A model generated the notes under the pieces. That model did not search any database, was not told where the DNA came from, and was given only the letters and a program-made list of their open reading frames with translations. A stretch of DNA of 33,095 nucleotides from Octopus sinensis (taxonomy: Eukaryota), in contig NW_021832095.1 of assembly GCF_006345805.1 (NCBI RefSeq), positions 1 to 33,095 of the forward strand, read 5' to 3'. The position numbers and the translations under genes are program-made. Of this stretch, positions 7,240-32,765 are shown one piece after another; within the stretch, counting starts at the first letter, position 1; the number at the start of each line of letters is the position of its first letter.

Positions 7240-7363
7240 AGAATCGTTAGCACGCCGGACAAAATACTTAGCGGCATTTCATTCGCCTTTATGTTCTGAG
7301 TTCAAATTCGACTGAGGTCAACTTTGCTTTTCATCTTTTCGCGGTCGATGAAATAAATACCAG
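7240..7363 (+). mobile_element. SINE family A (head + core)
   Basis: CAGAATCGTTAGCACGCCGG...GAGTTCAAATTC...GTCAACTTTGCTTTTCATC. Confidence 0.85.
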
Positions 7364-8490
7364 TTTTAACATCCGGTCATCAGAGTTTTTCAGGTAGGTG
7401 TTTAGGCCAATTGTGACAATCTTCGTTGTTAATTCCAGTTGTAAAAATCCACAGACACCCTCTTTTCTTGGCAGGTAGAGTCGTTATTAGCCTTCTTTGG
7501 GTATTTGCCATTGAGAAGTTTTTCTTGCCATTTATCAGTAAGAAAATCTATGGCAACTGTTTTAGCGCGGGTTTTCATATGCTTAGCTTTTTTCTGTGAT
7601 TGTGTCCTGAACATATAATTGTGTGACACGTTGTATTTGGAATTCACTCAGATAATTCTTTGCCTGTTTTGTTTATGAGTATGGTGTTTTCTTGTTTTCA
7701 TGTCTTAAGACAAGTTTTAACATCCAGTCATCAGAGATTTTCAAGTAGATATTTAGGTCAATTGTGGCAATCTTCATTGTTAATTCCAGTTGTAAAAGTC
7801 CACGACACCTTATTTTCTTGGCAGATAAATTCGTTCTATATTTGCCTTAGGGTAGTGCATTCCTTGCACTGTCAACAATTTTCGTATTTTTCTGTCAAGA
7901 TTACATATTTCAGTGATTGACCAGTTAATAATATTGAGACTAAGTCACAACCGGTATGGCTAAAGTACTGATCGCTTCTATCCTGTTTCTTGCATTCTGC
8001 TCTGTCTTGCCCTTACACTGCGATATTCTTTTCTGATCTTTTCCCTCGTCATTGAGTGTTTGATTCTATCACCATCAAATACCCCTAGGTATTTGTAGTT
8101 CTCCACTGGTTATAACTCCTTTATAGCATTCTGTTGGTCAAAATTAACGTTGCATGTTTCTATCATTTTTCCTCTGATAAAGGTAGCTTTTGCACATTTA
8201 TCGAGGCCAAATTCCATCCTGATGTCATTACTGAATTCTTTAACGATTGCTAGTTGTTGGTCATTTTTTTACAAGGAGCTTTAAATCATCCATGTAAAAA
8301 GAGATGATTTATATTTCTATGAAACACTTTATAGCCAAATTGTACATCATCGATCAATTTCAAGAAAGCTTTTAAGGCTAGACAGAAGAAGAGCGGTAAT
8401 AGGTAGTTACCCTGGAAAATGCTACATGAAATTCGTACATCTCCAGCATTGAGAGATTATGACTGTTCAAAGTGAGTATGGTTACACGTC
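7362..8490 (-). pseudogene. R4/Dong-like non-LTR retrotransposon reverse transcriptase fragment (frameshifted)
   Basis: Minus-strand translation across frameshifts: ISCSIFQGNYLLPLFFCLAL, INHLF/YMDDLKL, FSNDIRMEFGLDKCAKA, YKYLGV, NLDRKIRKLLT, MHYPKA..ERIYLPRK, KWQEKLLNGKYP. These match RT domains 4-7 and the thumb of RLE-type (R4 clade) elements. Confidence 0.88.
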
Positions 8491-8672
8491 ATTGATTGGG
8501 TGAAATTACCGAAATACAACTTTAACAAAAATTAACTTCCAAAATACAGAATTTTCTCAACAACGCCAAGAGTAAAAGATGTTTTATGTGACACATTCTA
8601 CCAGCATACGAAGTTTGAAAGTGTTTAGTTACAAAAAATTATTTCTTAATTCTGTCGGTCAAAAGGTAAAGA
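8491..8672. mobile_element. Possible non-autonomous DNA transposon end
   Basis: Abruptly replaces the LINE 5' continuation. The AT-rich sequence with a GAAGTTTGAAAG motif resembles DNA-transposon subterminal sequence; no TIR pair confirmed. Confidence 0.25.
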
Positions 8673-8877: not shown

Positions 8878-8896
8878 ATTATTATTGTTGTTGTTG

Positions 8897-8952
<56 letters not shown>

Positions 8953-8967
8953 GTTATTATTATTATG

Positions 8968-9001
<34 letters not shown>

Positions 9002-9055
9002 TATTATTATTATTATTATTATTATCATTATTATTATTATTATTATATTATATTA

Positions 9056-9093
<38 letters not shown>

Positions 9094-9136
9094 CATTATT
9101 ATTATTATTATTGTTATTATTATTATTACTATTATT

Positions 9137-9168
<32 letters not shown>

Positions 9169-9178
9169 TATTATTATA

Positions 9179-9222
<44 letters not shown>
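8878..9222. repeat. (TAT)n/(CAT)n microsatellite
   Basis: Directly visible. Confidence 0.95.
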
Positions 9223-9223
<1 letters not shown>

Positions 9224-10804: not shown

Positions 10805-11211
10805 TTTTTTTTACTTGTTTCAGTCATTTGACTGTGGCCATGCTGGAGCACCGCCTTTAATCGAGCAACTCGACCCCGAGACTTATTCTTTGTACGCCCA
10901 GTACTTATTCTATCGGTCTCTTTTGCCGATCCGCTAAGTAACGGGGACATAAACGCACCAGCATCGGTTGTCAAGCAATGCTAGGGGAACAAACACAAAC
11001 ACACAAACACGCACACATACACATACACATATATATATACATATATACGACGGGCTTCTTTCAGTTTCCGTCTACCAAATCCACTCACAAGGCTTTGGTC
11101 GGCCCGAGGCTATAGTAGAAGACACTTGCCCAAGATGCCACGCAGTGGGCCTGAACCCGGAACCATGTGGTTGGTAAACAATCTACTTACCACACAGCCA
11201 CTCCTGCGCCT
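10805..11211 (-). mobile_element. Full-length tRNA-derived CORE-type SINE (family B; possibly octopus OR-type)
   Basis: Minus strand: GGCGCAGGAGTGGCTGTGTGGT A-box, GGTTCAGGCCC B-box, CORE-like ATCTTGGGCAAGTGTCTT, internal (TA)/(TG) tract, tail GGTGCTCCAGCATGGCCACAGTCAAATGACTGAAACAAGTAAAA. Confidence 0.88.
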
Positions 11212-11668
11212 ATATATACACATATACATTTCAAAATGTAGCTACATGTGGATTGTTGGCGATTTTTTTCCTCCGTCTTCCTTTTCTCTTGGACTTTATT
11301 TTGTCTCCATGTTTTCCTTGTTTTTGTTTTCCTTTTTAACTTACTTCTTGCTTCTATTCTCTTTCGTTCTCTTTCGCCTTTTCTCAGAAAACACCATGCT
11401 TTTTTTTTGAGCCTGAAAGATTAGAGGATAGTACATAGCACGCTATAAAATCTCGCCAGCCATTGCGCTTTCAGAGCGTGAAACTTATTGTAGTTCACAT
11501 TTAAACTCTGTGTATGTTAAATGATATTTATATCTCGCTAAATGGAGTACGTATTTTGTAGGATGAGTGTGTGTGTGTGTGTGTATGCGTGTGTGTGTAT
11601 GCGTGTGAGTATGTGTATGTGTGTGTGTGTATGTGAATATGAATATATGTATCCATACACACACACAC

Positions 11669-11671
<3 letters not shown>

Positions 11672-11701
<30 letters not shown>

Positions 11702-11756
11702 TGTATGTATGTATGTATGTATGTATGTATGTATGTATGTATGTACGTACGTATGT
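11672..11756. repeat. (TATG)n microsatellite, left half of a split array
   Basis: Directly visible; continues at 12487-12526. Confidence 0.95.
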
Positions 11757-12487
11757 CATTATTCAGTTTTATTTCAAGATTGCTTGCCTATTGAGAAAGT
11801 TAGTTTCTAACCTATTTCAACATCAACAACAGGTTATTTTTGTTTGTATGTATGTATCTGTAAAGATCTCTATGTTTTGCTTCATGTATGTATTCTCATG
11901 GATATAGTTGCATATCTAGACAGGCTCATTTAAATGATAAACTTCTTGTAAGTTTTACAGAGTTTTACAGTTCCAGTGTGATGGATTGGATCTGTAGTCT
12001 TCGAATTAGCTTTCTCCTTTCTGGTTTTGAGAAGCCCGATTTCTCAAGATTGGTATTTAAGCAGTGTGTTACATATCAGCGCCCCAATAATTACAGGTAT
12101 AAACCTGAACTTCTAATCTGGATAGAGTAACTTCAGATTTCTCAATAGTTCAGTTTAGGCATTCTCTTTCTCACTTATCTTCAGCTTTATGTTAACATCC
12201 GCTGAGCAGCTAATTTCCATAACTGTACACAGTTTCTCTTATCTATCCCATTATATCAGGTTTGTTGTCCTTACATTTTATTGAGGTTTCCACTGGGACA
12301 TTCCACCAGTATTCCTTTTCATTATGAGTGGCTATAGCTTCGAACATACTATAGGTTCTTGTTTCTTTGTCCTCGGGGTTATCCTTCTGACAGATTTTAT
12401 TATAGAGTGTCCTAGCAACAACATCATGTCTCATCAGTAGATAATACCGTGATAAAATGTTTGGATAACTGTTTATGATGTGGGTGA
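11757..12487 (-). mobile_element. 5'-truncated RLE-type (R4-like) non-LTR retrotransposon inserted in (CATA)n
   Basis: ITHIINSYP..RYYLLMRHDVVA (end of zinc knuckle + RHD), KPDI...MEISC..D...K..EK (PD-D/ExK nuclease), FIPVIIGAL, LQIQSITGTVKLCK; 3' UTR with AATAAA; flanked by a roughly 20-bp TSD containing variant CGTA units. Confidence 0.88.
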
Positions 12488-12969
12488 TGTATGTACGTAC
12501 GTACGTATGTATGTATGTATGTATGTATATTTAGCTCTCTACATATCATACTTAATGTTAATACATCGCTGAATGACAAACAAATTTATTGCGGTATTCG
12601 CCCGGAGATAACCTCCTAGTAATCGTTTTGTGAAAATCGTCCAGGCAACATTTAGCGAGAACACCAGGTGCATTTCTAACTTGTTGAGCGTTGTCAGTGG
12701 TGTGTACTCGCAACCAGCTCAGACGAGGCATTTATATCAACGACAAGCTCGCACCAATTTCTACTCTCAAATTCTATTCACAATGTAATGGTCAATCATT
12801 GGCGACAAATATATAACATTTGTCGCACAGACCGAACGCAGGAATTACGGGGTTATGAGTCGAAACTTTTAATCACAGCCTTGCTCGCAAATTTGAACAC
12901 TTTCTTCTCTGTTTTCTTTATTTCTTTTTTCTTTTTCAATGTATAAAAAATAACACGTCCGGTAAGTAC

Positions 12970-18618: not shown

Positions 18619-19148
18619 GAGTGAGAGAGCAGTGCATGCTATCAAAGTGACACTAGGTAAAATATACGAAGCCCAGTATACCCATTATGACTACCCGTCT
18701 GATAAGGGTACACCAGGCACATACATCACAACCATATGTGCGCGACACGGTAATCTCATATCAAGATAAACAACACATGACCTTGCAGGTGGGGCCCAGT
18801 TAGAATTTTCTTCAGGTCGAGTAGCCCATCCCGCTCAAAAGCTCCCTGAATAAGGGTCGTTTAAAGTTTTGAACGAAACACCCATGTTTCCAGAGAATTC
18901 CTCTCAACACATGACTATGATGCTCCCCCACTACTTTTGTTCGTGATCAGAGATACACATATCGCCAGCCACTAAGGGACATGCTCAACTGGTTAAGGTC
19001 AAACAACCGACAAGCAAATCTGTGGTATTGAGCAAAATATTTGTTGTAGCCCATCTTTTATACCAATGCAAAACAATGTACATGATAACACTTCCTATCA
19101 GTTAAGATCAGAAGCCTTGAGAGCCACTGCCTGGTACTGCATCAGGGT
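18619..19148. mobile_element. About 530-bp non-coding insertion precisely bounded by (TAT)n tracts
   Basis: Sharp boundaries with in-phase (TAT)n on both sides; no ORF, TIRs or clear tRNA head. Probably a non-autonomous retroelement. Confidence 0.6.
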
Positions 19149-19177
19149 ATTATTATTATTATTATCATTATTATTAT

Positions 19178-19840
19178 AGTTGTATGAAAACTCACAGTTC
19201 ATTTTGCTGGGTATGATGGAAAGTATCAGCGGTCCACAGCCAGCAGAGTAAGGTGACACTTGTTTACTGGTCATACTTCAAGAACTCTGCGAAGAATTCT
19301 TGCAGTTCTAGGCAATGCTGATTTTTGTAGAAGTTCTACCTTCACACTTGCACCCATCTTTTTCAGCCATGCTGGTAGTTGAGTGCTGATACTTCCAAAT
19401 GCACCAATTACTATTGGTATCATTAACTCTCTTCATTAACCACAACTTTCGTATTTCCCACTTTAAATCGTCGTAGTTGTTTATTTTTTCTTCTTTCACA
19501 TTGGTCCTGTTGTCATCGGGGCATGCTATGTCGATAATCACATATTCTTTTTTATTCACCACAACAATGTCAAGTTTCCTATGTTTGGTCTGGATCATTA
19601 CATCCCACGGGATTTTATTTTCGGTGACTCCTTCTGCGGTTTTCTCATACCACGTCTTTGCTCTTTGTGGGATGTGATTCCCACAGAGCTCCCAATGGAT
19701 CATTTTTGCCACATTGTCATGGCGCCGTTTGTATTCGCGTTGTGCCAATTTCGAGCATTCGTTAATGATGTGCCATACCGTTTCACCCCTCTCACCGCAC
19801 ATTCTCCATTTGTCGCTATCGGTAGTATTATCAATTTTGT
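19178..19840 (-). mobile_element. Dong/R4-like LINE 3' fragment (zinc knuckle + RLE endonuclease + 3' UTR)
   Basis: RMCGERGETVWHIINEC, YKRRHDNVAKMIHWELC, WD..IQT.HR.LDIVVV...IIDIACP.D...KEEK, IPIVIGAFG, QKSALPRTARILRRVLEV*; the 3' end runs into (TAA)n. Confidence 0.92.
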
Positions 19841-19876
19841 GTGTGCGTTTGTACTTGTGAGCGTGTGTAAATATTA

Positions 19877-19960
19877 GGGTCGATTTGTTAGATTAAACCC
19901 TTCAAGACGGTGCCCCAGCATGGCCGTAGTCCAATAACTGAAACAAGCAAAAAATAAAAG
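19877..19960 (+). mobile_element. SINE family B 3' tail
   Basis: CGGTGCCCCAGCATGGCCGTAGTCCAATAACTGAAACAAGCAAAA matches the tail of the 10805 copy. Confidence 0.75.
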
Positions 19961-30322: not shown

Positions 30323-32260
30323 AAGTTTCTTTATTGGCCACACAGGGCTGCACACAGATGGGACACATTACAAGGTAGAGCTTTTCTTTTGGGGGATGAA
30401 AAAAAAATGGTGGCGTAGGTTTCCGATCAAAAGGGATCGTAAAAGGGAAAAAAGAAAGAAAGAAAAAAAAGGAAAAGAATCAAAAGAAAAGAAAAAAGAA
30501 AAAAGAAGAAAAAGGAGGAAAAAAGGGGAAGATGTAAAAAAACGATCAATAGGGAACCTTGTATCACAGTGTCATGATGTACGGTGTAAAGGGGGAAGCA
30601 GATAAGGTTTATCCGTGGGAAGAAAAGCCTACGAAAAAGACCACGGTAACCTCGGTCAATATTGTTATATGTTACCACATTTGTTTGCAAGTGGGTAACC
30701 CTCTGTTTTCAATTTCTGGGTTCATAGGATTATGCTCAAGGTGGCTTCGTCATTCATACGTGCCATCCTTGCTACATTCAACCATTTTTTTTTTAAACAT
30801 TCGCTAGACAAAACTTGCCTCTCTACTCTCACTTTCCTTTGAAGAAGTTGAGAGATTAACCAGAGAGGAAAGTGTTTGTCTCCAATCCTTTCAGATGCGT
30901 CCACCAGATACATTCTTTCGCCATAGCCACAAGGATGATGAAAATAGCTCTTCCTTCCCGTTTGAAGGAAGGAGGCGTGACAATATTGACGATAGACTCA
31001 GCTGATAAACCGACTCGTCCCACACGTGACAGCAGTTGTTCGGCATAAGCCCACAGGTCGGAAATTGTTGGACACTGCACGAGTGCGTGCAGAACGGTTT
31101 CGTCGCTCTGACCGCATCTCGGGCAGGTCGGCCCCGTGTTTCTCGAGCCGTGTCTGTAGAGCTTATCCCGAACGGGTAGCGCTTCTCGGTAGCCTTGCCA
31201 GACCAGGGATCTCTGGAAGTTGTCCATGGGCCCTGGCCCGAAAGTCGTCCCGAACAGGCAGGTCAGGTATTCCTCGTCGACGTCCAGGTTCGCCCCGAGC
31301 TCGTCGTCGTACCTCCCCTCCACTAATCCCCTATAGAATGCTTGGGTTGTGATGGAGTCACTCAGGGTCGACCCGGGACGGCAGAGTTGCTTGAGAGCAA
31401 CGTGACACTCGCGGTGCCATTCGCCCTTCCTCGGCCTCTTTTTGATCCACGACTGCACTTCGGTCATAGAGACTAGCTGCGGGAAAGCGTGCCTCACAAA
31501 CAGCAACCACACCTGTTCACCGTCGTCTACGAAGAGCCTGAGATGTCGCAGTCTCAGAGCGTGTCTGCGCATTATCAACCACGGCATGCCCAGTCCTCCT
31601 TTTAACGGGTGTTGACAGCAAATGGATCGCCTGACCATCGGGACGCATCCTTTCCACAAGAAGCGAAAGAGAATGCGTTCTAGTTGGGTGATGGTAGGGT
31701 CGGGACAAGGCACGACAGTCAGGCGGTAGTAGATGACGGACGCGATGTACGTGTTCGCCACCTCCGCCGGACCTTTTAGGGACAGTTTCCTCTCGGCCCA
31801 TTGCCGGGCGAGAGTGACCACCCTTCTCGTTATCTCGTTCCAGTTCTTCTCCATTTGGAGGTCCGGACCGAACCAGACCCCAAGCAACTCGACCGGACCG
31901 TCGGTCCAGCGTCCCACGACGAAGTCGCTGGTGGACGGCATGAGCTTGTTTCTCCAGGTGCCTAGTCGCAAGCCCACTGACTTTTCCCGGTTGATTTTCG
32001 CTCCTGTCACCGCTTCGTAGTTTTTCAGTGTCTCACCGACCTTCTCGATGTGCTCGTGGCTAGACACTATGACGGTGATGTCGTCCGCGTATGCAGACAC
32101 GCTCGTCCCGCATCCCAGTTCTCGCGGGATGCCCCTCAGAGTTGCCAGCTTCCGCAATAATGGCTCGAGATTCAATACGTATAGAAGCGAACGTGCGATG
32201 TCGAAAGGTCTCGACAGATGTCCATTTACGCGAATTACCGAACGGGTGCCTCTGTACAAA
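30323..32260 (-). mobile_element. 5'-truncated Tx1/L1-clade non-LTR retrotransposon
   Basis: ORF2 C-terminal half plus a pyrimidine-rich 3' UTR ending GCCCTGTGTGGCCAATAAAGAAACT; bounded by (GATA/GACA)n and (GGTA)n. Confidence 0.93.
30722..32259 (-). pseudogene. Tx1/L1-type ORF2 remnant (RT domains 4-7, thumb, zinc knuckle)
   Basis: LLYVLNLEPLL, SAYADDITV (YADD at 32080-32091), YEAVTGAKINREKS, LLGVWFG, LSLKG, GGLGMP, CPRCGQSDETVLHALVQC. Stop/frameshift near 30856, after which ERQVLS..KKW continues to 30722. The QG motif is missing. Confidence 0.92.
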
Positions 32261-32324
32261 GGTAGGTGGTAGGTAGGTAGGTAGGTAGGTAGGTAGGTAG
32301 GTAGGTAGGTAGGTAGGTAGGTAG
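32261..32324. repeat. (GGTA)n microsatellite
   Basis: Directly visible. Confidence 0.95.
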
Positions 32325-32765
32325 GGAAAACATAAACATAACCGAGAGTTGGTAAAACTTAAAGATTGATTGGAACAAAAAAATAACATTGAAAGTGAAA
32401 GGAGAGGGAAAGGAAGGAAATAATGAAAAAATATTGGGAGAAAATAGGGGATTGAAGGAAGAAATGAGTAGAATAAGGAAAATGAGTAAAAGAAGGAAGA
32501 ATGGAAAATTAGAATGAAGAAAATAATAAATGACAATTACATTGGTGTTCCCGTTGCTTTCCTCTGTATCTGTCTAGCTAATTCTCTAAATATTTATCTA
32601 TCTACCTATCTTCTGTCTCTGTCTGTCTGTCTGTGTGCGTGCGTGCGTGTGCACGTTTGGTCTTTCAAGTTTTTCTCATTTTATTGTAATTCATTAATTC
32701 CATAAATCGCTTCATGATTCATGGGCTTTTGTTAGAAAGAAGAAGAAAAGAAGAACAACAACAAG

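Follow-up and report, generated by a model that had tools for sequence, protein, structure and literature searches.

Target-primed reverse transcription is established for R2, and target switching is already known among such elements. The duplications left by R4 are about 13 bp long, and Rex6 is associated with (CTA)n. The closest described system is Dong, a member of the R4 clade represented by Bombyx mori Dong, DongAg, DongBg, and the ostracod Dong1/2, which combines an RT, a CCHC knuckle and a C-terminal RLE with insertion into microsatellites and carries at its N-terminus a Myb/SANT-like domain without zinc fingers, according to the portions consulted of two sources (PMC7998251, PMC3812793). 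The same portions give (TAA)n as the target of Dong in most insects, molluscs, and cnidarians (PMC7998251; also PMC3812793). The insertion site of R4 is large-subunit rDNA, as worded in the title of a reference in PMC3774820, and the available text of PMC6274825 describes Rex6 as an R4-family element with RT and RLE; no target repeat of Rex6 is given in the literature searched, the available text of that paper included. Microsatellite targets are also found in other clades. For example, excerpts of PMC4640811 assign Togen to (TG)n and some HERO families to microsatellites, and Waldo, an R1-clade element with an APE endonuclease, targets ACAY microsatellites, which include (ACAT)n, that is, (CATA)n (PMC3812793, in part).

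The window, by which the whole analysed stretch of 33,095 nucleotides is meant, carries on its minus strand at 11757-12488 a copy of a non-LTR retrotransposon that is about 730 bp long, 5'-truncated, dead, and situated inside a (CATA)n array. The copy is an inactivated, 5'-truncated member of a high-copy RLE-type family, and there is good reason to place it in a lineage of R4/Dong type for which C[A/T]TA repeats are the specific insertion target. The habit of R4 and Dong to insert into rDNA or a microsatellite is seen here as microsatellite at both ends of the window copy and of two relatives, L005 and L008. The (TAA)n target of Dong proper is not found; the flanks are CATA or CTTA, with the sole exception of one locus (L006) that starts in (TAA)17, probably an internal stretch. 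The lineage further differs from Dong in a motif, SYRRNRDY, particular to it. Where Dong is described with a Myb/SANT-like domain, it has a three-helix domain with weak matches to Myb/SANT-type folds. R4 of nematodes and Rex6 of fish have the same domain order, a comparison made by description and not by sequence. Togen and the microsatellite-specific HERO families likewise unite an RLE with microsatellite targets but are set apart, again by description, by another repeat unit and other clades. Waldo has the very repeat that flanks the window copy and L008, whereas its nuclease (APE) and clade differ from the C-terminal RLE found here, and a common target would be convergent. R2 (R2Bm, R2Tg) provides the best structural match for the knuckle and RLE region and the model for the mechanism, but of its traits, N-terminal zinc fingers together with Myb and a 28S rDNA target, neither the zinc fingers nor the rDNA target is found here.

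No CATA- or CTTA-specific RLE family was found in the literature searched, the scope of which did not extend to Repbase, the supplement of Fell et al. 2025, or Kojima and Fujiwara 2004. An earlier note on this DNA had taken (CATA)n as a target not known to be described for this clade. This holds for RLE elements as far as that search reaches, but the repeat itself is known for the APE-type Waldo (ACAY; the consulted part of PMC3812793), and the novelty is therefore confined to RLE elements. It is a substantial possibility, if not the favoured one, that such targeting does exist and has been catalogued before, be it as an R4/Dong family of Repbase or within the screen of Fell et al. 2025. This is favoured by the octopus families that libraries already hold: five recently active Dong-R4 families in O. 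vulgaris, with 51 consensus families covering 92.7 Mb (available text of PMC13282606), and, in the library of O. bimaculoides, a single Dong of full length (PMC9115989; PMC8967140, both in part). The screen of Fell et al. also speaks for it, with 4,464 animal assemblies searched for RLE elements and several site-specific families reported in the sections at hand (PMC13586686; also PMC13580325). On the other side stand the empty result of the literature search, the consulted text of the octopus papers, in which no target site of the Dong-R4 families is named (PMC13282606, PMC9115989, PMC8967140), and the listing of (TAA)n as the usual target of mollusc and cnidarian Dong in the part consulted of PMC7998251.

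The inserted sequence consists of 730 non-repeat bases (11757-12486) between two TATG-type arrays. On the element's 3' side lies (TATG)21 at 11672-11756, which on the minus strand is a (CATA)n array of 21 units with two CGTA variants adjoining the junction; on the 5' side lies a 42-bp array at 12487-12528 with three CGTA variants, beyond which the sequence is unlike the element. The element thus splits a (TATG)n array, as had been proposed. The minus-strand coding content is the end of a CCHC zinc knuckle followed by an RLE. This remnant of the C-terminal ORF (11930-12488) comprises the knuckle end, an RHD helix, and the RLE core (KPDI...E-I-S-C...K-x-x-EK), and it is interrupted by in-frame stops and frameshifts near 12250, 12076, and 11976. 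The 3' UTR of about 173 nt (11757-11929, minus strand) contains AATAAA at 11768-11773 as well as a short CATA run of its own near 11845-11857. Compared with most of the mapped contigs, the window copy deviates at no fewer than 40 positions (the best 40 of 221 entries), and is hence old. No second copy of the family was found elsewhere within the 33,095 nt of the window.

Word-seeded protein searches with the broken fragments of the window gave no match, nor did Pfam. When protein representatives were scanned by HMMER, the first 80 residues of the window fragment gave 83 matches, one of which (P0016) was rejected as an unrelated repeat protein; the closest named proteins among the matches looked up are XP_052833275.1 and XP_014788340.1 of Octopus bimaculoides, and the window itself is therefore probably of octopus origin. 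The full-length relatives, of 1,085-1,217 aa, are single ORFs with RT (RVT_1 present), a CCHC knuckle, and a C-terminal RLE, of which the window copy keeps the C-terminal part only, and the knuckle has the form CX2CX7HX4C in 13 of 13. The modelled C-terminal 319 residues of one relative, P0018 (pLDDT 95), had seven significant Foldseek matches, all of them R2 retrotransposon proteins, with an E of 1e-8 against the R2 knuckle and RLE and with Z of 22.8 and 20.2 upon full alignment. The nuclease is an RLE, given that this model matches R2 proteins in both comparisons, and the fold likewise backs the assignment of 11930-12488 to knuckle and RLE. No APE endonuclease family matched L008 or L005. 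The RT is similar to that of R2 only distantly (E 1e-21).

The N-terminal region is without zinc fingers: no CxxC occurs in the first 350 aa of 11 of the 13 proteins, and L001 and L005 have a lone CxxC each. The basic motif SYRRNRDY directly precedes a three-helix domain, which in a profile comparison matches the N-terminal domain of the Dong-like outer group (95%, E 2e-8). Its model (pLDDT 82) had no significant Foldseek match, and its best structural matches, mostly of SANT/SLIDE/Myb type, are weak (Z at most 7.0, rmsd 2.2, 71 aligned). These homologues with RT, CCHC knuckle, and RLE, the three-helix N-terminal domain common to them and the Dong-like outer group, and the lack of N-terminal zinc fingers bear out the earlier description of the insert as an R4-like RLE element. 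An HDV-like ribozyme at the 5' end is reported for R4 and Dong in the consulted text of PMC3774820; no ribozyme family was among the eight weak Rfam matches of L001, L002, L005, and L008. In full-length elements, short G+C-rich hairpins, without an Rfam ribozyme match, directly follow the 5' array at L002:60-85 and L005:101-125.

Two trees were built by quick searches with SH-aLRT support only. The C-terminal tree held 130 rows (124 of 137 candidates and six added), and the RT tree held 64 of 118 eligible rows (all five RT-bearing loci, every second other row, and six chosen rows). In the former, the window copy groups with the two O. bimaculoides proteins (SH-aLRT 99) within a 40-row clade (SH-aLRT 100) that also includes L008 and L001-L006. 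The TAA-tailed fragment of the window (19140-19823) falls with an insect protein in a separate 55-row clade (SH-aLRT 100), the TAA side of the tree being labelled by this one fragment. In agreement, the RT tree unites the five RT-bearing loci in one 21-row clade (SH-aLRT 100). The nearest outer group, at 30-35% identity, includes two insect proteins in the RT tree and the TAA-tailed window fragment in the C-terminal tree. The earlier statement that the protein of the insert differs from the TAA-associated fragments of the window is thus upheld. The CTTA loci form one subgroup, and the two CATA rows are not sisters. Membership of the R4/Dong clade rests on architecture together with the sister group, since named sequences of R4, Dong, or Rex6 are absent from the trees.

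Metagenome contigs scanned with an alignment of six proteins gave ten loci, nine of them true relatives; the tenth, L010, was discarded as a weak, unrelated match. All four loci that reach the 5' end begin in an array (CATA in L008; CTTA in L001, L002, and L005), with the caveat that assemblers break at arrays and that the 5' array of a full-length copy can be the tail of an upstream copy. Likewise, the five loci with a 3' end all terminate in an array (CATA in L008; CTTA in L003, L004, L005, and L006). The full-length L008 is bordered by (CATA)n at its 5' and 3' ends, the only such case outside the window, and L005 has (CTTA)n at both ends; both are oriented as in the window copy. The six loci with CTTA ends (L001-L006) come from two assemblies, possibly of one host, and L003 and L004 are one family. 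Whether the 5' flanks of other copies are random had been raised by the earlier note as the point on which its proposal of (CATA)n specificity turned; the four relatives with a 5' end, all starting in a CATA or CTTA array, speak for non-random flanks, and the proposal gains from the (CATA)n at both ends of L008, the (CTTA)n at six sister loci, and the octopus-type contigs described below.

By contrast, no 3' array is present in L001, L002, and L009 before the contig ends (569, 831, and 922 nt past the stop), and L007 is interrupted. The (TAA)17 in which L006 starts is probably an internal poly-Asn stretch at a contig break; alternatively, it marks a truncation in a TAA array. In L004:3748-3888 the (CTTA)n array gradually gives way to units of (CTGA)n and (CGGA)n. 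The stretch L001:350-477, upstream of that locus's (CTTA)n array, resembles the 3' end of a related element, which on sequence likeness suggests head-to-tail stacking. Exact DNA patterns of the 3' end had no match in metagenome or viral contigs, and protein-pattern scans of viral and prokaryote genome contigs returned no relative.

In octopus-type sequencing runs the family is very abundant. Twenty runs from five organisms contained 0.18-0.47 of the sampled words. Three contig runs of three organisms and one raw-read run were mapped onto 11737-12510 at 80% likeness, and the contig runs yielded 19,059, 12,141, and 20,349 mapped contigs, numbers which, like the summed depth, are no copy number. 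The raw-read run X21, which was left out of account, had 3 matched reads vs 19,059 contigs in X17, which bears the identical species label; this label likely covers different organisms. At the 3' end the depth runs on into the TATG-like flank: the bin containing 20 bp of array had 0.79, 0.49, and 0.55 of the depth of the next bin, where 0.23 would be expected had the contigs ended at the 3' junction. None of the 18 loose ends listed lies at the 3' junction.

At the 5' end, the listed independent junctions either run into array (12010->12487, 11840->12488, and 11859->12490) or pass via a short spacer into the 3' end of another copy (11977->11762, 11857->11761, and 12224->11747). Three of these six coincide with, or come close to, the CATA run inside the 3' UTR and could be expansions within the element. 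The 5' joints are ascertained, being reported only if the far side matched the mapped stretch, and those listed are part of a larger set with a further 302 joints, 103 spacer joints, and 2,105 loose ends; they hence show that such junctions occur and not how often. At the CATA run of 11845-11857, 126 contigs of X17 and 132 of X6 leave the element and continue as repeat, which reflects a hotspot of truncation or else an internal repeat of greater length. Loose ends at 11857 continuing as (GTAT)n were not taken as 5' junctions, as a longer internal repeat explains them equally.

Several of these observations could also arise in the absence of any sequence specificity, if (CATA)n were a self-made 3' tail that anneals to chance breaks in CATA arrays or in older tails. 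A tail alone predicts the 3' depth that runs into array, and insertion beside older tails would fit both the tandem junctions and the upstream flank of L001. TATG arrays are, moreover, common (perfect runs make up about 0.9% of the window), and the octopus sample of 5' flanks is the ascertained one. Such an origin is nevertheless improbable. The four relatives with a 5' end all start in an array of their own tail's unit, and the 5' array of the window copy borders on DNA other than an element end and holds rare variants common to the 3' side. Furthermore, insertion guided by annealing would in effect still be repeat targeting.

The variants in question are the TACG (= CGTA) units, of which two close the left array and three open the right array. 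They make up 5 of the 32 units in the two flanks vs 1 of 100 in the window's remaining nine TATG-type arrays, and the chance of a variant near both junctions is about 0.01 by a crude estimate with independent units at 2% each. Both variant strings quoted earlier, at 11737-11756 and 12487-12510, are present, and the statement that CGTA variants flank the element on both sides is thereby confirmed. The duplication that they delimit can be read in more than one way. The exact duplication is 17 bp with a 3-nt tail (11737-11753 = 12487-12503, minus strand), or 15 bp with 2 nt of microhomology counted as element, the 3' copy then being 11739-11753. The 3 nt between the element end and the exact duplication (11754-11756) probably come from a short tail of repeat on the element RNA or form a part of a slipped duplication. 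Without a tail, the duplication would be 20 vs 24 bp (11737-11756 and 12487-12510) and requires that one CGTA unit has slipped. The longest string common to both sides is 14 bp if the comparison is anchored at 11756. A duplication at both junctions had been anticipated and stands, but its proposed length of about 20 bp is not matched by any exact 20-mer, being 15-17 bp if exact or 20-24 bp if slipped. Whichever length is taken, the duplication bears variant units, and the array with its variants is therefore older than the insertion, as had been argued.

The microhomology at the 5' truncation point is likely shorter than the ACAT suggested before. All five listed contig pieces that reach the 5' junction and still have bases left cease to match at 12488, and the sequence common to element and target (12487-12488, minus strand) is consequently likely about 2 nt (AT). 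The joint 11756->12487 in three contigs of X6 was rejected as an empty site, since its support is 20 letters only and any mixed CATA/CGTA array would produce the same. It is improbable that the CGTA units on both sides reflect an already mixed array that was split but not duplicated, or else slippage or conversion that took place afterwards between the half-arrays, for although the sides are unequal by one unit and the three X6 contigs that join both strings without the element imply that mixed arrays exist on their own, an exact duplication of 15-17 bp adjoins both junctions, the variant is rare in other arrays, and the array would still predate the insertion.

Under specific insertion into C[A/T]TA repeats, the events at this locus may be pictured on the R2 model of target-primed reverse transcription. 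The full-length protein, with an N-terminal Myb-like domain, RT, CCHC knuckle, and RLE, would bind the array, possibly with a role for the Myb-like domain. The RLE would nick the (TATG)n strand, and the freed 3' end would prime cDNA synthesis on an RNA that may end in a few repeat bases. Synthesis would have halted after about 730 nt, and the other strand would have been joined via about 2 nt of microhomology. A second nick, placed 15-17 nt (or 20-24 nt) away, would leave the duplication which the CGTA variants make visible.

CATA, CTTA, and CGTA all read TACN, and recognition may depend on a TAC that recurs with a period of four bases. A broader and more tentative reading, which falls a little short of an even chance, is that the RLE retrotransposons include an undescribed and widespread branch which recognises a four-base lattice, (TACN)n. 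In this branch the octopus members and L008 would use CATA and the sister families CTTA, with CGTA tolerated; the target would have switched within a near-identical protein architecture. Copies of the order of ten thousand would be present in octopuses, where their tails and duplications would lengthen and multiply CATA arrays. Some of the many (TATG)n arrays in octopus-type genomes could owe their origin to this lineage. The finding is wider than one family, as it concerns a lineage bounded by C[A/T]TA arrays, intact members included. The intact proteins are about 45-50% identical, and their repeats are one base in four apart (CATA vs CTTA). Because the intact relatives on either side differ at a single repeat base, direct domain-swap tests are possible.

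The neighbours of the insert revise the view of mollusc and cnidarian Dong-type elements as mostly (TAA)n-directed, as two target classes occur in one window. At 19140-19823 on the minus strand lies the 3' end of an RLE element of Dong type that carries a (TAA)n tail and has about 30-35% identity to the CATA/CTTA lineage; after it comes another element with a TAA tail, at about 18620-19150. A decayed Dong-type RT fragment at 7350-8530 (minus strand) is found near a long (TAA)n array at 8878-9223. Two similar copies of the start of a short interspersed repeat, likely a SINE, are present at 10816-11212 and about 19870-19960. A different 5'-truncated LINE with RVT_1 and zf-RVT and a 500-codon open frame, likely of L1/Tx1 type, occupies 30700-32325 on the minus strand; its 5' junction adjoins a (CCTA)n array at 32260-32325, and it is possibly another microsatellite-associated family.
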